Shown piece by piece: positions 36,377 through 63,459 of a stretch of 64,000 bases of DNA. The notes beneath the pieces were generated by a model. That model was given only the letters and a program-made list of their open reading frames with translations. It did no database searches and was not told where the DNA came from. How positions within the stretch are numbered: position 1 is the stretch's first letter; the number at the start of each line of letters is the position of its first letter. This DNA comes from Escherichia coli. GTDB taxonomy: Bacteria > Pseudomonadota > Gammaproteobacteria > Enterobacterales > Enterobacteriaceae. The stretch lies in NCBI RefSeq assembly GCF_044324785.1, contig NZ_CP172127.1. One strand, given 5' to 3'. Both the position numbers and the translations under genes were made by a program.

Positions 36377-36594
36377 TGACCAAAAACCTCTTTGCGTCAC
36401 ATTTTTACAACAATTATGGCAGAGAAGAATAATGCCATTGGAATGAAGAGAGTAACGAATGGCTAAACCGAATGACGAAAAATTCTGGAAAACAGCACGC
36501 AATTTCGTCAAGTGATTATTTTCGTCCCTAAGGAAACCTCATAGGATGCCTGCGGGTGCCTGAGACTTTCTGTTTTCAGGCTAACCGGGAATCA

Positions 36595-36641
36595 GAAAGA
36601 CGAAGGCCCCGACCGATATTTCTATCAACCGAGGCCAACGA

Positions 36642-36660
<19 letters not shown>
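36595..36660 (-). ncRNA. sokB: Possible SokB antisense RNA (type I antitoxin); position approximate
   Basis: Inferred only from the hok/sok paradigm: the antisense RNA should overlap the mokB translation start at 36642. Ends are not determinable by eye. Confidence 0.25.
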
Positions 36661-36849
<189 letters not shown>

Positions 36850-37264: not shown

Positions 37265-37328
37265 CTTCCGATGTAGACCCGTATTCTTCGCCTGTACCAC
37301 GGGTCGGTTTTAGTACAGGCGTTTTCTT
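37265..37328 (+). ncRNA. rydC: RydC small regulatory RNA (Hfq-dependent)
   Basis: Sequence cttccgatgtagacccgtattcttcgcctgtaccacgggtcggttttagtacaggcgttttctt matches RydC as I remember it; ends in a hairpin plus U-tract; located between ydcA and cybB. Confidence 0.8.
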
Positions 37329-37338
37329 TAAATATCCT

Positions 37339-37869
37339 TCAGGAACGTTTACGCGGCATCATGCGTAGAAGTGTGTTGTCCTTCCAGAAATAGTGGTGTG
37401 CCAGTGCAGCCGCAGCGTGCAACCCGATGACAAAGTATCCCAGATTCGCCAGCGTTTCATGCCACGACTTTAAGCTATCAACCCGTTCGAAATTGGCCTC
37501 TGATGCATAAGGCATCGTCATACCAAACGCAAACCACGGGTTACCCCGGTTATACATCATCACCAAACCAATCACTGGCAGCGCAATAAACAGGAGATAG
37601 ATCACCAAATGTCCCAAATGCGCCAGTCCCGTCATCATCGGTTTTGGCTTAGGTATAATCGGCGGGGTTGGGTATTTCAGCCTTAACAAAAGACGAACCA
37701 CCATCAGCACGAGAATTGTGATGCCACAGGAAACATGAATCATGTTGATGAGCGGCCGATCGCTACGTGGGAAGAAACCACGAAACTCCATTGCGCAATA
37801 CGCTGCGATAACCAGCAAAAAGACCAGCCAGTGAATGCTGATTTGTAACCTTGAGTATTTATTTTCCAT
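37339..37869 (-). CDS. cybB: Cytochrome b561
   Basis: Internal start MENKYSRLQISIHWLVFLLV… gives 176 aa with four TM helices. The 12-codon extension in the track ORF is judged spurious. Confidence 0.9.
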   Translation of the reverse strand: MENKYSRLQISIHWLVFLLVIAAYCAMEFRGFFPRSDRPLINMIHVSCGITILVLMVVRLLLRLKYPTPPIIPKPKPMMTGLAHLGHLVIYLLFIALPVIGLVMMYNRGNPWFAFGMTMPYASEANFERVDSLKSWHETLANLGYFVIGLHAAAALAHHYFWKDNTLLRMMPRKRS

Positions 37870-38057
37870 AACATTTCCTGCTTTAAAACAATTTGCCGTT
37901 AACATAACGAGCTTTTCTTAAAATTTCATTAAATATTGTTCACCCGTTTTCAGTACGTTACGTTTCACGGCAAGAATGTAGATTGCCCATCCCGCCATCC
38001 TGGTCTAAGCCTGGAAAGGATCAATTTTCATCCGAACGTTCCTGACAGGAGAAGACC

Positions 38058-39059
38058 ATGAGTAAAGTTGGTATTAACGGTTTTGGTCGTATCGGTCGAC
38101 TGGTGTTGCGTCGATTACTTGAAGTCAAAAGCAACATAGACATTGTTGCTATTAATGATCTCACTTCCCCAAAAATTCTCGCCTACCTGTTGAAACATGA
38201 TTCAAACTACGGACCGTTCCCCTGGAGCGTTGATTTTACGGAAGATTCACTTATCGTTGATGGAAAAAGCATCGCGGTTTACGCCGAAAAAGAGGCTAAA
38301 AATATTCCATGGAAAGCGAAAGGCGCAGAAATCATTGTCGAATGTACTGGCTTTTATACCTCCGCCGAGAAATCGCAGGCGCACCTTGATGCTGGTGCGA
38401 AGAAGGTGTTGATTTCCGCCCCTGCCGGTGAAATGAAAACCATCGTTTATAACGTCAATGACGACACACTGGATGGCAACGACACCATTGTTTCCGTGGC
38501 GTCATGCACCACTAACTGCCTTGCGCCGATGGCCAAAGCCTTGCACGACAGTTTCGGAATAGAAGTCGGCACGATGACGACCATTCATGCCTATACCGGC
38601 ACTCAGTCACTGGTGGATGGTCCGCGAGGTAAAGATCTACGCGCTTCACGTGCAGCGGCAGAAAATATCATTCCCCACACTACAGGTGCGGCAAAAGCCA
38701 TTGGTCTGGTGATCCCGGAACTGAGCGGCAAACTGAAAGGTCATGCGCAACGCGTGCCGGTGAAAACAGGTTCGGTCACTGAGCTGGTATCGATTCTCGG
38801 AAAAAAAGTGACTGCCGAAGAGGTGAATAACGCACTTAAACAAGCAACCACCAATAACGAGTCATTTGGTTATACCGATGAAGAAATAGTCTCTTCCGAT
38901 ATCATTGGCAGCCATTTCGGTTCGGTGTTTGATGCCACGCAAACGGAAATTACCGCCGTGGGCGATTTACAACTGGTGAAAACGGTCGCCTGGTACGATA
39001 ACGAATATGGCTTCGTCACGCAGCTTATTCGCACCCTCGAAAAATTCGCTAAACTCTGA
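38058..39059 (+). CDS. gapC: Glyceraldehyde-3-phosphate dehydrogenase, full length
   Basis: 333-aa uninterrupted ORF with NAD-binding GFGRIGR and the active-site Cys motif [10 protein letters not shown]. Confidence 0.9.
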
Positions 39060-39066
39060 CGCGCAC

Positions 39067-39095
39067 AGGCGGAGGAAAAAACCTCCGCCTCTTTC
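39067..39095 (+). terminator. Hairpin terminator between convergent gapC and aldA
   Basis: AGGCGGAGG-aaaaaa-CCTCCGCCT, a perfect 9-bp stem, followed by ctttc. Confidence 0.45.
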
Positions 39096-39100
39096 ACTCA

Positions 39101-40540
39101 TTAAGACTGTAAATAAACCACCTGGGTCTGCAGATATTCATGCAGGCCATGTTTACCATCTGCGCCGCCAATACCAGATTTACGCCATCCGGCGTGGAAG
39201 CCTTGCATAGCTTCGAAGTTTTCACGGTTGATGTAAGTTTCACCAAACTTCAGCCCTTTAATGGCTTTCATCGCGACGTTCAGATTTTGGGTATAGATTG
39301 ATGAGGTCAGGCCGTAATCACTGTCATTAGCCATTGCGATAGCGTCTTCCAGCGTGTCAAATGCGACCACTGGCAGCACCGGGCCAAAGGTTTCCTCGTG
39401 CATAATCGACATTTCCTGGCGAACATCCAGTAGCAATGTCGGCGGATAATAATATCCTTTCCCCTCTACCGCTTTGCCACCCAACGCCACTCTCGCCCCT
39501 TCTTCTACTGCGCGCGCCACTTTTTGCTCGACCCTTTCCAGCGCCGCGGCGTTAATCAACGGCCCCATCGCAATGTCGTTGCGTTCAGCGGGGTTACCAA
39601 ATTGAACCGCCTGCATCGCTTCACCCAGCCGATTGACGAACTGATCATAAATGCCTTTCTGTACATAAACACGTTCTGCACAGTTACACACTTGCCCACT
39701 ATTAATGACGCGTGAATCAACGATGGCTTTGACTGCCAGTTCAAGATCGGCATCGTCCATTACGATAGCTGGTGCTTTACCACCCAATTCCAGACACACT
39801 TTGGTGATGTTTTTCGCCGCAGTCGCCATGATCTTTTCACCTGCAGAGACGCTGCCTGTCATACTGACCATTGCGACCTTTGGGTTACCCGCCAGTTCTT
39901 GCCCAACGGTTTCACCACGCCCCAGAACAAGGTTAAACACGCCGCGCGGAAGGCCTATTTCATCGACGATTTTGGCGAATGCAATCGCATTGTTTGGCGT
40001 AAATTCACTGGGTTTAATGACAATGGTATTACCAGTCAAAAGAGCGGGAGCCATTTTGCGGGCAATGAGGAAGAACGGGAAGTTCCACGGCAGAATGCCG
40101 GTAGTCACACCAAGCGCACGTTTAAACAGAAGAATATTTTCTCCTGGACGATCGCTTTGAATAATCTCGCCCTCGTAACGCCGTGCCCACTCCGCCATGT
40201 AATCGATATAGTCCGCAGTAAAAGCCACTTCGACTTCAGCCAGCTGCTGGATCTTGCCCCCTTCTTCAACAATCAGCGCACTGATTTCACTGGCGCGTTC
40301 GCGGATCCCGGCGGAGATTTTGCGCAACCAACTGGCGCGTTCAATGGCAGGCAACGCTTCCCATTCTGGTTGTGCACGTTCTGCTGCATCGATTGCCTTA
40401 CGGGCATCCTCGGCCTGACCATCGGGAATGCGGGAAATGACAGCCTCAGTAGCAGGGTTTACCACATCAATCCATGCGTCTCCACGCCAGGTAACAAACT
40501 GTCCATCGATATACATAGGATGTTGAACGGGTACTGACAT
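39101..40540 (-). CDS. aldA: Lactaldehyde / aldehyde dehydrogenase A
   Basis: 479-aa ORF MSVPVQHPMYIDGQFV… with ALDH motifs. Confidence 0.9.
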   Translation of the reverse strand: MSVPVQHPMYIDGQFVTWRGDAWIDVVNPATEAVISRIPDGQAEDARKAIDAAERAQPEWEALPAIERASWLRKISAGIRERASEISALIVEEGGKIQQLAEVEVAFTADYIDYMAEWARRYEGEIIQSDRPGENILLFKRALGVTTGILPWNFPFFLIARKMAPALLTGNTIVIKPSEFTPNNAIAFAKIVDEIGLPRGVFNLVLGRGETVGQELAGNPKVAMVSMTGSVSAGEKIMATAAKNITKVCLELGGKAPAIVMDDADLELAVKAIVDSRVINSGQVCNCAERVYVQKGIYDQFVNRLGEAMQAVQFGNPAERNDIAMGPLINAAALERVEQKVARAVEEGARVALGGKAVEGKGYYYPPTLLLDVRQEMSIMHEETFGPVLPVVAFDTLEDAIAMANDSDYGLTSSIYTQNLNVAMKAIKGLKFGETYINRENFEAMQGFHAGWRKSGIGGADGKHGLHEYLQTQVVYLQS

Positions 40541-41926: not shown

Positions 41927-42421
41927 ATGAAAAAAATGTTTCAACTTTTAGAAACCGCCTGGCCTGCCGTAAAAACAACAGGACTTACAGGTTGCGTAAC
42001 CGCTCCGGAAACTGAAGATAACCTTCTTTTATTAGAGGATAAATACGCAACACATATTCCAAAAGACTATCGGCAGTTATTGTCTCATTTTGGCGCATGT
42101 CATTTTGCCGATCCTCAAATTTATACTTTGAAGGATCTGGACAGATATTACCCTCTATTTTTGCAACAATGGGAAGATTATAAAAAAGAATATCCATTAT
42201 TGAACAACATTGATCCTTTTCCTGTTGGCAGTTTTGGCGATGGGAGTGTAGCTTTTCTTGACCGCAACAGCCTAAAAATTTATATTCTCATTCATGATTT
42301 TGGTATATTTTCCGATGATGTCGGTGATTTCCCTTGTGAGTTATGCTTTGAAAATTTTGGTGAGTTAGTGGAAATGCAAGTTGAAATGATTCTTTATTTA
42401 CAGCAATGTGGAGTCTCATGA
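41927..42421 (+). CDS. SUKH / SMI1-KNR4-family protein (immunity-protein-like), 164 aa
   Basis: AT-rich ORF; motif blocks LLLEDKYATHIPKDYRQLLSHFGA and PFPVGSFGDGSVAFLD fit the SMI1/KNR4 pattern as I remember it. Not a gene I place at this position in K-12. Confidence 0.55.
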   Translation: MKKMFQLLETAWPAVKTTGLTGCVTAPETEDNLLLLEDKYATHIPKDYRQLLSHFGACHFADPQIYTLKDLDRYYPLFLQQWEDYKKEYPLLNNIDPFPVGSFGDGSVAFLDRNSLKIYILIHDFGIFSDDVGDFPCELCFENFGELVEMQVEMILYLQQCGVS

Positions 42422-42717
42422 AAAATAAAATCATCACTCCTGTCCTTACTGAAAACAAAGTGAATTTGATAGCAGAAAAATATTGTAAAAAGTATAATCT
42501 TAATGGCTCGCTGGCATACAAAATCACTGCTATTAAATTTCTTCCTGATGGTATGAAATCATACGACCTTGATATTCCATTATGGATGGTAGTCAGAGAT
42601 GTTAAAGGTTGGGATGATATGGAAATTACGATTTTTATTTCTGACAAAAACAGTGAAGTTCTTTGTTGCAGTAATATTTGGTATCCAGTATATCGTCCTC
42701 ATCAAGCAGATTTGTAA
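42418..42717 (+). CDS. Hypothetical protein, 99 aa, translationally coupled to the upstream SUKH gene
   Basis: ATG at 42418 overlaps the upstream TGA (ATGA); GGAG lies 5 to 8 nt upstream. The ORF track lists the same frame starting at 42406. No recognisable domain. Confidence 0.5.
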   Translation: MKNKIITPVLTENKVNLIAEKYCKKYNLNGSLAYKITAIKFLPDGMKSYDLDIPLWMVVRDVKGWDDMEITIFISDKNSEVLCCSNIWYPVYRPHQADL

Positions 42718-55773: not shown

Positions 55774-58700
55774 TTAGAACGTTTTCTTGAAGTTCAGCAT
55801 CACGCCTTTATCGCTGATGCCGTCCTCTTTCCAGTGGTAAGCATCCAGATTCAGCGAACTTTCTTTGCTGCTGTACTTCACGCCGACACTTGCCAGGCTG
55901 TTGATGCCGCCGCCCTTCTGTCCGTCATCGACGTTAAAGTGCTGACTGCCTGCGCCTGCCAGGCTTGCCGTACGCTGGCTCTTCGCGTAGCTCAGGTTCG
56001 GCCCGCCTTCCAGCGTAGCGCTAGCGCTCCAGCCGTCTTTACCTGCATAGTCCAGTTTCAGCCCGACGATGCTGTCCACCGCCGTTTCGCTGCCACTGTT
56101 CATATTCAGGTTAAAGTCTCCGGCATTGCGCTCCTGATAGCCACCTTCCAGTGTGTGACGCAGTTTAACACCCGCATATGGCGTAACCTTCAGTCCTTCG
56201 CTCGGTTCGAAAGTCTTCGCCCCTTCGCTGCGGAACTCCAGGTACTGCTGCTTCACGTCGGTATCAGCCGTTTTGTTTGTGTTGCTAAATGCAATCGAAC
56301 GGCTGCTGTCAAGGTTGTGAACGTCATAACGCAATGCGTTATTCCAGTTCATGCCGTTGTCGAAGGACATCTGATGTTTCAGGCCAAAGAACTGGCTATA
56401 ACCGCCTGTAACGCCATTATCACCCGCTTTCTGCGCACCGTCGCCATCGAGGCGCGCGATACCGTACTCCAGACTCATCGTCTGGCTTTCGCTCAGGTCG
56501 ATGGTTTTACGCAGTGCCAGCATGTCGTACTCGGTATTGTTCCCCAGCTCCGCGCGCGGATCGCCTTTCGCCACCACGTTGAACGCCAGACCGTTACCCA
56601 CTTTCGGTGCGGCATCCGCCAGCATGCTAAAGCGGTTGCTGAGCACACGCGCTTCGCGGAATACCGTGGTCGCCTGGCTACCGCTGACCTGTTTCAGGGC
56701 ACTGTTCAGTTCGGCAGTCGTGCCGACGTTCAGGCTGGTATACAGCTCGTTGTTGGTGTAACCCGCATCCAGTGCTTTCGCGACGTCATTAACCGAAGCA
56801 TCGGTCGCCACATCGGTATAAGCGTTTTTGCTCATAGTGACGTCAACGTTGCCGCTGGCATCGGTACTGCCTTTAGCGTTCCAGACAACTGAAGAGGAAG
56901 TGATATTCTCCGCGCCGCTGATATTTTCACCTTTGAAAACATCATCAATCACCACGGTAGTATCAGCAGTTCCTGCACTAAAGCCAGTATTTACCTTGAC
57001 GTTGTCACTGATAACAAGGTTATTGGCTTTCAAGGTGCCGGAACTTCCGTCGCTATTAGTACCAATAGTGTAATTGGTAAGTTTTTGCTGACTTACAGCA
57101 TTGACTGGTGCCGCAGGAACATTACCTTGCCCAGGCGTCGCAGAAGCGACCGGTACGATTATATCCGCAGTTCCATCCTGACTGTTTCTCGTCCCTGTGG
57201 TATTTGGCGCATAAATCTCGCAACCAATATTACACAACAGGTTGATTATCCCATTATTCACAATCGCTTTAGTGGAACCACCAAACGCCCATGAATTATC
57301 TGCATAAACGTTAATGACACCGTCTTTAGTATTATTAATCGTTGTTGCAGAACCATTTCCTTTGATGCCAATCAGACCTTCACCGTTGCTTCCATCTGCT
57401 TTGCCCTGTTCAGTACCCACGTTAATTGTGCCGCTGTTCACTAACTGAACAGTATAGCTGGTGGTGCCTCCGCTAATAGCAACTGAACCATCACCCTGAA
57501 CATTAATTGTTCCGGCGTTAGCAAAATTATACCCGCGACCTAAATCAATCAGTGGAGCATCTGGATTGATACCATTAATTACACCGTTTTCTGTATTCCA
57601 AATCCATTTGCCGTTGCTGTTAGAGCCTGTGCTGGCAGTTTTAATCGCACTGTAACCGTTTGTAGCGATAATTTTGCCGCGGTTAACCTGTGAAAGAGAA
57701 TCACTGGTGCGTGTGATATTAACGATGGCATTTTCCCCTCCCGCAATAGCATTGCCGCTATTTGTAAGCGTTGAGCCGGCTTCATTATAAAGTACGAAAC
57801 TGCCGTTAATTAAGGCACTACCATCTGTGGCAGTTGTCATCTCCCCCGTATTTACAACGTTTTGTTTATAACTATCACCGCTAATTACACCGCTAAAGCT
57901 TCCCTCATTGAAGAAGGCAGACCCGCCTTTTAACATTAACAGTTCGGTTGTCATACTGCCCGAGGCGCGATTGTAAACACTGGCATTGGCAGTAAGCTTG
58001 TCGACATCCATGCTCCCGCTGTTTTCCAGCCCCTGGACAATATTCAAATCACCATTAACTGTCAGGCTGGCCTTATCCTCGTTATATAACCATAGATTGG
58101 CATCGACATCGCCGTTCAGTATTTCTGTACCATAATTAGCCAGCGGTTTAATGGTAACAAAGCCATCTCGGGTAACTGTTTTGGTAATGTTCTCTCCACT
58201 GGCACTCAATTCAGATAACAGTTCCAGATTCTCTGCAGGAGCACCATAATGAGAGTCGGCGCTATCAATTTCCGCTCCGTTGAGATTAATCTCACCATAG
58301 TTGAGGATAATGCCTGTACCATCATTATAAAACGCCTGGCCCGTATCAACATTAATATTGATTACACCAGTTTGGTCGTTTATTGCCGTAGCACCTTTAT
58401 ACACTGCCATCCCTACCAGCGTATTACTACCCAGGTTTGCATCGTAATCTGCATTTTTCTCGAGGTTAATGATTCCCTGGTTAATAACCATATTACTGTT
58501 ACCGTAGGCGGCCATACCGGCACCTGCGTTATATACAGTAATTACACCACCTTCCAGGTTGGTCGCAATAGCGTTGTTACGAGCGCCACCCCCGGTGTCT
58601 GTCCCGGTTGCCATACCAACGCCATAATCTTTTGCCGTTGCCCCCGGAAGATCGGTACGCAAACTGGTGGTGTCATTGTCATCAATCCATAACGTATCCA

Positions 58701-61700
58701 CCGTAATATTGCCTGCATTATCCGCCGTTGAGTTATCGATGGCTAACATGCCAATGCTACCGCGTCCATACATATCAATGACAGCACCTTCGGCATTGAG
58801 AACAGAGCCTTTATTATACGCCTCCATCCCCATCATGCTTGCTACGCTGTTATTAAACACGCGCTGATCCGTTGACCCCGTGAGTGCAGCCATATTAACA
58901 ACGCTATGTTGCTCCATTACTTTTGAGGTAATTACCCCTTTGTTTACTGCTCTGCCGCCGTTAGAGGTCAAGAAGGCCGTGTTATCTGGTTCCGGTGCTG
59001 GCGTATTAGTTGAGGCATAATCATACAGAGAAAGTGTGATATTCCCGTTATTGATACCTGTGGTATTTTCGCCAAAGATACCAGCAAAGCTGATATTCCA
59101 GATATCAACATTACCGTTATTTATAACCTCAGAGCTACTTTCTGCCTTTATAATCTGTGGTGTTTGTGCATAGTAATGATCATAATTTTCAATATCCCGC
59201 ATATTGAAAGTAGCTTCACTGCCAATCTCAATAGCTGCTTTATTTTTTAACTGGATAAGGCTTGCATATCCTAGTTGCAGATCACCACTGATCGTTGAGT
59301 CACCATTCAGATATATCTTCGATTCACCATCAATACCAATAAGTGGCGTATTACCGAAGAAAGTCCGTTTGTTAGCAATGGCTGAACCATCGGTCAGCGC
59401 ATTTATTTCACCAACAAATGCAATCCCGCCATTCAGATTGATGTTGTTACCATCACCGGAAACAATAAGACCAGAAATATTTTCCTGGCTACCGTCAAAA
59501 TTCGAGACATCACGTGTGGTAGTTTCACCATCCGCAACAAGCGTTAATTTACCATCCAGTGTCACATTGTTATTATGACCACTGACATTTACGCCCACGG
59601 AAGCGTCATAAAAATACTCTGCTGCATTGTCTGCGCTCTGATCTTTATCAACCAGAATATTACCAGTTATATCAATTGTATTGGCATCACCGGAGACGTT
59701 AATACCTGTAGCTTTCTGACCAACGACATTAAGATCCTGCATTGCCATTGTCAGGCTATTATTATCGCCAGTTAATGTCAGCCCTGTTGAAAAATCACCG
59801 ACCTGCATACTTCCCGCGAGGGAGATTTTCCCCTCGTCGCTGGTAATAGCAAATCCCGTCGCTGAATTGCTGACATCCACATCACCGGTATTGGCAAGTG
59901 TCGCGTTGTCGCCATTGATCAGTACACCGATCGAGTCTGCGTCCGTGACGGTCATATTGCCTTTGTTATCGACGGCGGCATTATCGCCAGAAATATCAAT
60001 GCCGTGACCGCCGCCGCTGACATCCAGATCGCCATCCTGGATAACTTTTCCGTTATTGCCGTTGATTTCCGTGCCGGTGGAGTCTTTACCGTCAACGGTG
60101 GTTTTGCCGCTGTTGTTCGCCGTGGCGTCGTCACCGTTAATCTGTGTACCGGTGCCGCCGTTGGTGATGGTGCTCTCGCCTTCGTTGTTAACAACCGCCT
60201 TGTCGCCGTCGATCTGAATACCGATGGACTCCGGATCGGTGACAGTCATGGTACCCTTGTTGTCCACCGTTGCGCTGTCACCGGTAATATCAATCCCGTG
60301 ACCGCCGCCGCTGACGTCCAGATCGCCGTCCTGGATAACTTTTCCGTTATTGCCGTTGATTTCCGTGCCGGTGGAATCTTTACCGTCAACGGTGGTTTTG
60401 CCGCTGTTGTTCGCCGTGGCGTCATCACCGTTAATCTGCGTACCGGTGCCGCCGTTGCTGATGGTGCTGTCGCCTTCGTTGTTAACAACCGCCTTGTCGC
60501 CGTCGATCTGAATACCGATGGACTCCGGATCGGTGACAGTCATGGTACCCTTGTTGTCCACCGTTGCGCTGTCACCGGTAATATCAATCCCGTGACCGCC
60601 GCCGCTGACGTCCAGATCGCCGTCCTGGATAACTTTTCCGTTATTGCCGTTGATTTCCGTGCCGGTGGAATCTTTACCGTCAACGGTGGTTTTGCCGCTG
60701 TTGTTCGCCGTGGCGTCATCACCGTTAATCTGCGTACCGGTGCCGCCGTTGCTGATGGTGCTGTCGCCTTCGTTGTTAACAACCGCCTTGTCGCCGTCGA
60801 TCTGAATACCGATGGACTCCGGATCGGTGACGGTCATGGAGCCCTTGTTATCCACCGTTGAACTGTCACCGGTGATATCAATGCCGTGACCGCCGCCGCT
60901 GACATCCAGATCACCGTCCTGGATAACTTTTCCGTTATTGCCGTTGATTTCCGTGCCGGTGGAATCCTTGCCGTCAACGGTGGTTTTGCCGCTGTTGTTC
61001 GCCGTGGCGTCATCACCGTTAATCTGCGTACCGGTGCCGCCATTGCTGATGGTGCTGTCGCCTTCGTTGTTAACAACAGCCTTGTCGCCGTCGATCTGAA
61101 TACCGATGGACTCCGGATCGGTGACGGTCATGGTGCCCTTGTTATCCACCGTTGAACTGTCACCGGTGATATCAATGCCGTGACCGCCGCCGCTGACATC
61201 CAGATCACCGTCCTGGATAACTTTTCCGTTATTGCCGTTGATTTCCGTGCCGGTGGAATCCTTGCCGTCAACGGTGGTTTTGCCGCTGTTGTTCGCCGTG
61301 GCGTCATCACCGTTAATCTGCGTACCGGTGCCGCCGTTGCTGATGGTGCTGTCGCCTTCGTTGTTAACAACCGCCTTGTCGCCGTCGATCTGAATACCGA
61401 TGGACTCCGGATCGGTGACAGTCATGGTACCCTTGTTGTCCACCGTTGCGCTGTCACCGGTAATATCAATCCCGTGACCGCCGCCGCTGACGTCCAGATC
61501 GCCGTCCTGGATAACTTTTCCGTTATTGCCGTTGATTTCCGTGCCGGTGGAATCTTTACCGTCAACGGTGGTTTTGCCGCTGTTGTTCGCCGTGGCGTCA
61601 TCACCGTTAATCTGCGTACCGGTGCCGCCGTTGCTGATGGTGCTGTCGCCTTCGTTGTTAACAACCGCCTTGTCGCCGTCGATCTGAATACCGATGGACT

Positions 61701-63459
61701 CCGGATCGGTGACGGTCATGGAGCCCTTGTTATCCACCGTTGAACTGTCACCGGTGATATCAATGCCGTGACCGCCGCCGCTGACATCCAGATCACCGTC
61801 CTGGATAACTTTTCCGTTATTGCCGTTGATTTCCGTGCCGGTGGAATCCTTGCCGTCAACGGTGGTTTTGCCGCTGTTGTTCGCCGTGGCGTCATCACCG
61901 TTAATCTGCGTACCGGTGCCGCCATTGCTGATGGTGCTGTCGCCTTCGTTGTTAACAACAGCCTTGTCGCCGTCGATCTGAATACCGATGGACTCCGGAT
62001 CGGTGACGGTCATGGTGCCCTTGTTATCCACCGTTGAACTGTCACCGGTGATATCAATGCCGTGACCGCCGCCGCTGACATCCAGATCACCGTCCTGGAT
62101 AACTTTTCCGTTATTGCCGTTGATTTCCGTGCCGGTGGAATCCTTGCCGTCAACGGTGGTTTTGCCGCTGTTGTTCGCCGTGGCGTCATCACCGTTAATC
62201 TGCGTACCGGTGCCGCCATTGCTGATGGTGCTGTCGCCTTCGTTATTGACAACCGCCTTGTCACCGTCAATCCGGATACCCATGGACTCCGGATCGGTGA
62301 CAGTCATCGTGCCCTTGTTATCCACCGTCGCACTGTCACCGGTGATATCAATCCCGTGACCGCCGCCGCTGACGTCCAGATCGCCGTCCTGGATAACTTT
62401 CCCGTTATTACCGTTGATTTCCGTGCCGGTGGAGTCTTTACCGTCAACGGTGGTTTTGCCGCTGTTGTTCGCCGTGGCGTCGTCACCGTTAATCTGCGTG
62501 CCGGTGCCGCCGTTGCTGATGGTGCTCTCGCCTTCGTTATTGACGATGGCCTTGTCACCGTCAATCCGGATACCCATGGACTCCGGATCGGTGACAGTCA
62601 TGGTGCCCTTGTTATCCACCGTCGCGCTGTCGCCGGTGATATCAATGCCGTGACCGCCGCCGCTGACGTCCAGATCGCCGTCCTGGATAACTTTCCCGTT
62701 ATTACCGTTGATTTCCGTGCCGGTGGAGTCTTTACCGTCAACGGTGGTTTTGCCATTGTTGTTTACTGTGGCATTATCACCCGTAATAACAAGCTCACCG
62801 TTGTGATTGTATTGCCACTTCGTTGCGCCATCTGCGCTCACCCCTTCAAGGGCAACAGTGTTATTTGCTTCATCAATCTGCCAAAGATTAATTGTTGCCT
62901 TACGACCACTGTTATCTTGCAGAGAAATAGTCCCGTCAGCATTCTCGGTATAAGTAAAAACTGAATCGCGAATAGTTAACGTTTTTTCTGTTTTATCGAG
63001 AATAACGTCATTATTAAACGAAATCGGTTTGGAAGGTGTAGGGGTATCATCCGGATCGTCCGGTATTATCTCATCTCCGCCTGGAGTTGGAGGCACTGGA
63101 GTATCGTCTGAATCATCATCGGGTGGTGTCGGCGGTACAGGGGCATTGTTGCGATGATGATGATTACCATCGTCGTTTAGTTCGACGACCGCCAGCGCGG
63201 TGATTAATGCAAAGGCACCAGAGGCAACCCACGGCATAAGGTTTTGCTGTACTTGTGGAGAACATTCGGGAGGTATTTGCTTTAACGCTTCCGGAGTCAG
63301 CATGTCAGGGTCTGCCGGACAAGTCACATTGGTATTTTTCTTTTCGCCTGTGGCCGTTTCTGTCTCTGTAATATCAGCCGCCCACCCCTGACCACTCAGA
63401 GCTAATGCAATACAGGCTGATAATAGGGTTTTCCTTTGCATAATAAATCCTTCTGACAA
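55774..63459 (-). CDS. ydbA: Giant autotransporter adhesin-like protein YdbA, uninterrupted
   Basis: 2561-codon ORF. Signal peptide (MQRKTLLSACIALALSGQGWA; the start may be the internal ATG at 63441), Pro/Asp-rich linker, repetitive passenger domain, and a C-terminal beta-barrel region ending in F. Confidence 0.9.
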   Translation of the reverse strand: MSEGFIMQRKTLLSACIALALSGQGWAADITETETATGEKKNTNVTCPADPDMLTPEALKQIPPECSPQVQQNLMPWVASGAFALITALAVVELNDDGNHHHRNNAPVPPTPPDDDSDDTPVPPTPGGDEIIPDDPDDTPTPSKPISFNNDVILDKTEKTLTIRDSVFTYTENADGTISLQDNSGRKATINLWQIDEANNTVALEGVSADGATKWQYNHNGELVITGDNATVNNNGKTTVDGKDSTGTEINGNNGKVIQDGDLDVSGGGHGIDITGDSATVDNKGTMTVTDPESMGIRIDGDKAIVNNEGESTISNGGTGTQINGDDATANNSGKTTVDGKDSTGTEINGNNGKVIQDGDLDVSGGGHGIDITGDSATVDNKGTMTVTDPESMGIRIDGDKAVVNNEGDSTISNGGTGTQINGDDATANNSGKTTVDGKDSTGTEINGNNGKVIQDGDLDVSGGGHGIDITGDSSTVDNKGTMTVTDPESIGIQIDGDKAVVNNEGDSTISNGGTGTQINGDDATANNSGKTTVDGKDSTGTEINGNNGKVIQDGDLDVSGGGHGIDITGDSSTVDNKGSMTVTDPESIGIQIDGDKAVVNNEGDSTISNGGTGTQINGDDATANNSGKTTVDGKDSTGTEINGNNGKVIQDGDLDVSGGGHGIDITGDSATVDNKGTMTVTDPESIGIQIDGDKAVVNNEGDSTISNGGTGTQINGDDATANNSGKTTVDGKDSTGTEINGNNGKVIQDGDLDVSGGGHGIDITGDSSTVDNKGTMTVTDPESIGIQIDGDKAVVNNEGDSTISNGGTGTQINGDDATANNSGKTTVDGKDSTGTEINGNNGKVIQDGDLDVSGGGHGIDITGDSSTVDNKGSMTVTDPESIGIQIDGDKAVVNNEGDSTISNGGTGTQINGDDATANNSGKTTVDGKDSTGTEINGNNGKVIQDGDLDVSGGGHGIDITGDSATVDNKGTMTVTDPESIGIQIDGDKAVVNNEGDSTISNGGTGTQINGDDATANNSGKTTVDGKDSTGTEINGNNGKVIQDGDLDVSGGGHGIDITGDSATVDNKGTMTVTDPESIGIQIDGDKAVVNNEGESTITNGGTGTQINGDDATANNSGKTTVDGKDSTGTEINGNNGKVIQDGDLDVSGGGHGIDISGDNAAVDNKGNMTVTDADSIGVLINGDNATLANTGDVDVSNSATGFAITSDEGKISLAGSMQVGDFSTGLTLTGDNNSLTMAMQDLNVVGQKATGINVSGDANTIDITGNILVDKDQSADNAAEYFYDASVGVNVSGHNNNVTLDGKLTLVADGETTTRDVSNFDGSQENISGLIVSGDGNNINLNGGIAFVGEINALTDGSAIANKRTFFGNTPLIGIDGESKIYLNGDSTISGDLQLGYASLIQLKNKAAIEIGSEATFNMRDIENYDHYYAQTPQIIKAESSSEVINNGNVDIWNISFAGIFGENTTGINNGNITLSLYDYASTNTPAPEPDNTAFLTSNGGRAVNKGVITSKVMEQHSVVNMAALTGSTDQRVFNNSVASMMGMEAYNKGSVLNAEGAVIDMYGRGSIGMLAIDNSTADNAGNITVDTLWIDDNDTTSLRTDLPGATAKDYGVGMATGTDTGGGARNNAIATNLEGGVITVYNAGAGMAAYGNSNMVINQGIINLEKNADYDANLGSNTLVGMAVYKGATAINDQTGVININVDTGQAFYNDGTGIILNYGEINLNGAEIDSADSHYGAPAENLELLSELSASGENITKTVTRDGFVTIKPLANYGTEILNGDVDANLWLYNEDKASLTVNGDLNIVQGLENSGSMDVDKLTANASVYNRASGSMTTELLMLKGGSAFFNEGSFSGVISGDSYKQNVVNTGEMTTATDGSALINGSFVLYNEAGSTLTNSGNAIAGGENAIVNITRTSDSLSQVNRGKIIATNGYSAIKTASTGSNSNGKWIWNTENGVINGINPDAPLIDLGRGYNFANAGTINVQGDGSVAISGGTTSYTVQLVNSGTINVGTEQGKADGSNGEGLIGIKGNGSATTINNTKDGVINVYADNSWAFGGSTKAIVNNGIINLLCNIGCEIYAPNTTGTRNSQDGTADIIVPVASATPGQGNVPAAPVNAVSQQKLTNYTIGTNSDGSSGTLKANNLVISDNVKVNTGFSAGTADTTVVIDDVFKGENISGAENITSSSVVWNAKGSTDASGNVDVTMSKNAYTDVATDASVNDVAKALDAGYTNNELYTSLNVGTTAELNSALKQVSGSQATTVFREARVLSNRFSMLADAAPKVGNGLAFNVVAKGDPRAELGNNTEYDMLALRKTIDLSESQTMSLEYGIARLDGDGAQKAGDNGVTGGYSQFFGLKHQMSFDNGMNWNNALRYDVHNLDSSRSIAFSNTNKTADTDVKQQYLEFRSEGAKTFEPSEGLKVTPYAGVKLRHTLEGGYQERNAGDFNLNMNSGSETAVDSIVGLKLDYAGKDGWSASATLEGGPNLSYAKSQRTASLAGAGSQHFNVDDGQKGGGINSLASVGVKYSSKESSLNLDAYHWKEDGISDKGVMLNFKKTF
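59900..62760. repeat. Tandem in-frame repeats inside ydbA: about 10 copies of a 294-bp (98-codon) unit
   Basis: Protein unit GKTTVDGKDSTGTEINGNNGKVIQDGDLDVSGGGHGIDITGD…NGGTGTQINGDDATANNS recurs about ten times. Alternate-frame shadow ORFs recur at exactly 294-bp spacing (60246, 60540, 60834, 61128, 61422, 61716, 62010, 62304), several with identical translations. Confidence 0.9.

Follow-up and report, generated by a model that had tools for sequence, protein, structure and literature searches.

The window, a 64,000-nucleotide stretch of Escherichia coli DNA, carries gapC at positions 38058–39059 (+ strand) as a single uninterrupted ATG-to-TGA open reading frame (ORF) of 333 codons followed by TGA, located at exactly these coordinates in the ORF list; the product is assigned to the type I NAD-dependent phosphorylating glyceraldehyde-3-phosphate dehydrogenases (GAPDH). 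The gene is flanked on one side by trg, hokB/sokB, ydcA, RydC, and cybB (divergent), and on the other by aldA (convergent) and ydcF; the order trg–hokB–cybB–gapC–aldA–ydcF is that of K-12 MG1655, and the placement between cybB and aldA, divergent from the former and convergent with the latter, is the one by which the orthologue group is recognised. The gene of strain N3 that is 100% identical to the window gapC is annotated in RefSeq as an intact gap gene (WP_000048646.1). The sok antitoxin RNA lies beside hokB (36554–36705, + strand; Rfam 111.5 bits) and the RydC sRNA just downstream of cybB (37265–37328, + strand; Rfam 92.5 bits), both above the gathering score and both as in K-12.

A Shine-Dalgarno motif, AGGAG, was read directly at 38047–38051 (+ strand), 6 nt 5′ of the gapC ATG, and is unchanged in all five E. 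coli lineages aligned; it makes a good ribosome-binding site. The divergent cybB–gapC intergenic region of 188 bp (37870–38057, + strand; start position of cybB taken from the annotation of strain N3) is presumed to hold the gapC promoter. Alignment of most of this region (window 37890–38075) from five lineages, including K-12, gave a mean column identity of 98%. No sigma-70-like promoter was returned by a consensus scan of 37300–39300, against 2.2 expected. Downstream, the 41-bp gap between the convergent gapC and aldA contains a GC-rich hairpin with a 9-bp stem and an A6 loop (39067–39090, not assigned to a strand), for which an RNA fold of −18.5 kcal/mol was calculated (z = −4.18; none of 200 shuffles as stable). 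This hairpin is a probable terminator shared by gapC and aldA. A terminator scan of 37300–39300 gave five terminator-like calls, none of them within the gapC–aldA gap, and the hairpin was missed because its tail (CUUUCAC) is T-poor.

The predicted protein has the domain order of a type I GAPDH, an NAD-binding N-terminal domain followed by a catalytic C-terminal domain. Both Pfam matches are far over their cut-offs: PF00044 (Gp_dh_N, NAD-binding; residues 3–102, 122.7 bits, E = 8.6e-36) and PF02800 (Gp_dh_C, catalytic; residues 155–313, 195.2 bits, E = 6.5e-58). TIGR01534, the type I GAPDH equivalog of NCBIfam, is matched over its whole length (profile positions 1–330 of 330) with 446.7 bits, the cut-off being 367.2. 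Residues of the cofactor site comprise the GxGxxG motif (G8-F-G10-R-I-G13) and Asp34, in AINDL; an aspartate in GAPDH selects NAD over NADP. The catalytic residues, C150 in VASCTTNCL (S149-C150-T151-T152-N-C) and H177 in TTIHAYT, are invariant between GapC and GapA; the phosphate-site (Ps/Pi) residues T180, R198, T209-G210, and R232 are all present and conserved with GapA, and N315 is present and aligned with GapA. The preliminary description of this DNA had claimed an intact 333-codon gapC frame with NAD-binding and catalytic Cys motifs, and both the frame and the motifs were found where it had placed them; it had also named alignment with gapA as the check by which a loss of essential catalytic residues would become visible, and all residues checked in that alignment are retained. 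No other GAPDH gene was found within the 64-kb window.

GapA (b1779), the housekeeping glycolytic GAPDH, shares with GapC the fold, domain order, catalytic Cys/His, NAD motif, and phosphate-site residues, but the two proteins are only 48% identical and gapA is found at a different locus. An assignment of GapC as GapA was rejected (PRK15425 equivalog: 301.9 bits, cut-off 662). The window gapC is thus a paralogue of gapA and no duplicate of it. Epd (GapB, the erythrose-4-phosphate dehydrogenase of gamma-proteobacteria) belongs to the same GAPDH superfamily and aligns with GapC over its full length; GapC is not an Epd, since its scores are about half of the Epd cut-offs (279.8 bits, cut-off 539; 276.5 bits, cut-off 530.55). 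The ArsJ-associated GAPDH was likewise rejected (307.3 bits, cut-off 450; neighbours cybB and aldA, no arsJ).

The closest solved structure is EcGAPDH1 (PDB 7C5F), which is identical to the window GapC at 332 of 333 residues (E = 1.9e-219), the sole difference being I29V. Together with the Pfam E-values given above (6.5e-58 and 8.6e-36), a match of this strength to a solved E. coli GAPDH means that the GAPDH identity does not arise by chance. EcGAPDH1/GapC (PDB 7C5F and related entries; WP_000048646.1) is the product of the same gene at the same locus, and the window protein is identical to WP_000048646.1. Ile29 of the window protein, Val in 7C5F, is also Ile at the equivalent position of GapA, and the change is conservative. 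EcGAPDH1 has glyceraldehyde-3-phosphate (G3P) dehydrogenase activity with formation of NADH and a Km of 0.73 mM for G3P, determined under non-physiological assay conditions of pH 10 and 50 °C (PMC8615399); this activity was measured on the Val29 allele, and that of the Ile29 allele of the window would follow from it by near-identity. Activity was abolished in the C150A mutant and was lowered roughly 10^4-fold in C150S and H177A, with about 8000-fold for H177A (PMC8615399).

Selection on the gene was estimated from 14 intact alleles (window, N3, and 12 spread over the identity range), for which mean dS was 0.102, mean dN 0.0041, and dN/dS about 0.04; one of the intact alleles differs from the window by 22 synonymous and no non-synonymous changes. 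Since the 7C5F enzyme is active and the selection analysis agrees, it is close to certain, as far as can be predicted from a protein sequence, that the window GapC is catalytically competent. The suggestion made earlier, that this strain may carry a second functional GAPDH, is thereby supported at the level of prediction (332 of 333 residues shared with an active enzyme; 48% identity to GapA; catalytic residues intact). In the reaction envisaged, Cys150, activated by His177, would attack glyceraldehyde-3-phosphate; NAD+ in the N-terminal Rossmann domain would accept the hydride; and inorganic phosphate would release 1,3-bisphosphoglycerate from the thioacyl enzyme.

A different main activity within the GAPDH family, whether Epd-like, NADP-dependent, or ArsJ-associated and arsenate-detoxifying, has to be weighed on account of the sub-threshold NCBIfam matches to the Epd and ArsJ-type families and of the NADP dependence of ‘GapC’ in other organisms, e.g. 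Clostridium (PMC11123869). The Epd and ArsJ-associated models remain below their cut-offs, however, and there is no arsJ neighbour; Asp34 is NAD-specifying. Moreover, NADH is formed when the near-identical enzyme acts on G3P (PMC8615399), and we regard another main activity as very improbable.

In K-12 MG1655 (NC_000913.3), gapC (b4493; formerly gapC_1/gapC_2, b1417/b1416) is annotated as a pseudogene of 1001 bp; it is the orthologue of the window gene, with the same neighbours in the same orientation, and MG1655-derived gapC is flagged by RefSeq as ‘frameshifted; internal stop’. Alignment of the window and K-12 genes gave 97.2% nucleotide identity, with 27 substitutions and one 1-bp deletion; 24 of the 27 substitutions are synonymous, and the others are R18G, I29V, and a stop. 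The stop lies at codon 39 (38172–38174, + strand), which is AAA (Lys) in the window and TAA in K-12 (A115T); the deletion lies in a run of seven A (gene positions 744–750; 38801–38807, + strand), which is A6 in K-12 and causes a frameshift. K-12 gapC thus carries Lys39 to TAA, A7 to A6, and R18G, none of which is present in the window allele. The statement of the preliminary description that K-12 gapC is a disrupted pseudogene is borne out by the NC_000913.3 annotation, the RefSeq flag, and the aligned lesions, and the pairwise alignment it had proposed placed both lesions in K-12 and neither in the window allele. K-12 gapC is barely decayed, which points to a recent loss.

The A-run is also where an open frame might be owed to a sequencing or assembly artefact, such as a miscounted homopolymer masking a frameshift, because the K-12 frameshift falls in it and such runs are classic sites of length errors. 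Against this, gapC is 100% identical in the independent complete genome of N3; none of the 14 intact alleles departs from A7; the exact A7 60-mer occurs in 1562 genomes; and the exact protein is found on at least 1000 contigs. The probability left to an artefact is negligible.

Among 5426 complete E. coli genomes, gapC was present in 5417, with 95–99% identity to the window gene in 5253 and at least 99% in 81; its nucleotide identity to the gapC of other E. coli is at the level of the species (5417/5426), as expected for one orthologue group. At least 1000 public contigs encode exactly the GapC protein of the window, and the 90% cluster of this protein holds 4797 sequences. A 42-mer around codon 39 was found with AAA in 3717 genomes and with the TAA of K-12 in 1155, about 545 gapC-carrying genomes matching neither form. 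The exact A7 60-mer was found in 1562 genomes and the exact K-12 A6 59-mer in 1041; only the exact-match counts of these probes are usable, the identity bands being partly informative because neighbouring SNPs push many genomes into the 95–99% band. In an evenly spaced sample of gapC matches, 30 of 39 full-length alleles measured 1002 bp and nine measured 1001 bp; all 12 of the 1002-bp alleles sampled were annotated as intact (including those of O157:H7, O145:H28, ST131, and O6:K2:H1), and all four of the 1001-bp alleles sampled were pseudogenes. Intact gapC is the majority state, in roughly three quarters of complete genomes, a figure that rests on the sample (30/39; 12/12) because of the approximately 545 genomes that matched neither 42-mer.

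About 1041–1155 of the 5426 genomes, about a fifth, carry the double lesion of K-12, a TAA codon 39 together with the A6 run. Isolates with the K-12 lesion come from pigs, chickens, dogs, humans, wildebeest, wastewater, seawater, and marine sediment. The double lesion most likely arose in nature, in a lineage from which K-12 descends, instead of during domestication, contrary to the phrasing used in the literature. A separate case was observed in O157:H16, in which gapC has an independent 1-bp deletion near gene position 798, with Lys39 and A7 kept and the first stop at codon 277; the RefSeq flag is ‘frameshifted’ only. These data suggest at least two losses of gapC, one as a double-lesion haplotype (approximately 20% of complete genomes) and one as the O157:H16 frameshift. 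The gene is dispensable in nature, and its contribution is therefore conditional or small. For comparison, gapA was present in 5425 of the 5426 complete genomes, with an identity of at least 99% in 5424, whereas most gapC alleles fall at 95–99%, so that the two paralogues differ strongly in nucleotide diversity. Plasmid-labelled records gave five matches to gapC and two to gapA.

Intact gapC had been reported outside laboratory strains as early as 1998 (Espinosa-Urgel and Kolter, via PMC2949598), and a review by the discovering group, citing that study, describes the gene as intact in environmental isolates (PMC2949598; see also PMC1796617). An intact gapC is thus an already known condition of E. 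coli, and as a common one it is no peculiarity of the present strain.

Expression was considered from K-12 data. A ChIP-seq peak of sigma-S RNA polymerase lies in the homologous gapC–cybB interval of K-12 (PMC4447067); gapC transcripts are raised in slow-growing PTS− strains and lowered on inactivation of rpoS (PMC2759082), and they are also found in a data set on carbon limitation (PMC4512719). From these reports we infer that expression of gapC is conditional and linked to stress or starvation, as for an auxiliary isoenzyme. Transcription would probably depend on conditions such as sigma-S activity, carbon limitation, and stationary phase, and possibly on aquatic or low-temperature conditions; GapC would then act as an auxiliary isoenzyme, the main glycolytic enzyme being another.

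It could be held instead that the frame is intact and the enzyme workable, but that the gene is silent or physiologically irrelevant, a cryptic gene drifting to loss and not yet hit in this lineage. The lack of a consensus sigma-70 promoter upstream would fit such a gene, as would its repeated loss in nature (the K-12 lesion in approximately 1041–1155 of 5426 genomes, wild isolates among them, and the O157:H16 deletion) and the presence of a universal and far more conserved gapA (at least 99% identity in 5424 genomes). However, a dN/dS of 0.04 at a dS of about 0.10 across divergent lineages is unexpected for neutral sequence; the ribosome-binding site and the upstream region are conserved; and even in K-12 the promoter has kept its regulation and its binding of sigma-S RNA polymerase (PMC4447067, PMC2759082, PMC2949598). 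A silent gapC is therefore considered unlikely.

Our preferred reading, held with high confidence, is that the window gene is an intact chromosomal gapC allele encoding what would be a competent NAD-dependent phosphorylating type I GAPDH, auxiliary and conditionally transcribed in vivo; as a part of the same joint explanation and with the same high confidence, the K-12 pseudogene is read as a recent, lineage-specific loss and intact gapC as the norm of the species. A more specific proposal is made only tentatively, namely that GapC is a niche-specific isoenzyme (sigma-S, carbon starvation, aquatic or low-temperature conditions) that strong purifying selection maintains in most E. coli, and that its loss, in at least two events, may reflect ecological shift and not neutral decay.

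Apart from correct annotation, an intact gapC is of little importance. GapA is taken to be the only GAPDH in metabolic models and engineering designs that start from K-12; most natural E. coli, and this strain too, would encode a second competent one. In non-K-12 strains, a second GAPDH could have a bearing on the phenotypes of gapA knockouts, on redox engineering, and on studies of GAPDH ‘moonlighting’. The conditions under which gapC is used, and the reason for its loss in some lineages, make up a modest question that has been recognised since 1998.

Other parts of the window were noted in passing. The neighbouring aldA (39101–40540, − strand) is an intact ORF of 479 codons; the aldA of N3, the closest complete genome, is marked as ‘frameshifted’. 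Over 25 kb of the window (26000–50999), N3 is 99.3% identical and is the sole record at 99% or above, all other genomes among the matches listed being at 97.9% or below; for gapC taken by itself, in contrast, 81 genomes reach 99% or more. Either the lineage of the window is sparsely sampled, or the 25-kb region is a recombination mosaic. Collinearity with N3 over the whole window was rejected, as it fails at the left end with an offset in ORF positions: window 1–4500 is not collinear with N3, and yncG lies at 2325–2942 in the window and at 3663–4280 in N3-based coordinates. An ORF of 353 amino acids (64–1125, + strand) had no Pfam match, and N3 has VgrG and an RHS core gene in the same place.

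Between ydcF and hrpA, the window contains two small genes (41927–42717, + strand), coding for a SUKH/SMI1-KNR4 protein of 164 amino acids and an overlapping ORF of 103 amino acids. The former is immunity-protein-like (PF14568 and PF09346, just over their cut-offs), and the latter gave no match in Pfam; in K-12, the ydcF–hrpA gap is only about 270 bp long and both small genes are absent. The two genes may be an orphan immunity cassette.

At 55774–63459 (− strand), a single uninterrupted ORF of 2561 codons has a BigA/YdbA N-terminal barrel and BigA beta-sandwich domains; its N3 counterpart is annotated as a frameshifted, incomplete autotransporter fragment and a separate repeat protein. With K-12 ydbA, which we take to be an IS-interrupted pseudogene, this ORF would be another case of a gene intact here and broken in K-12.
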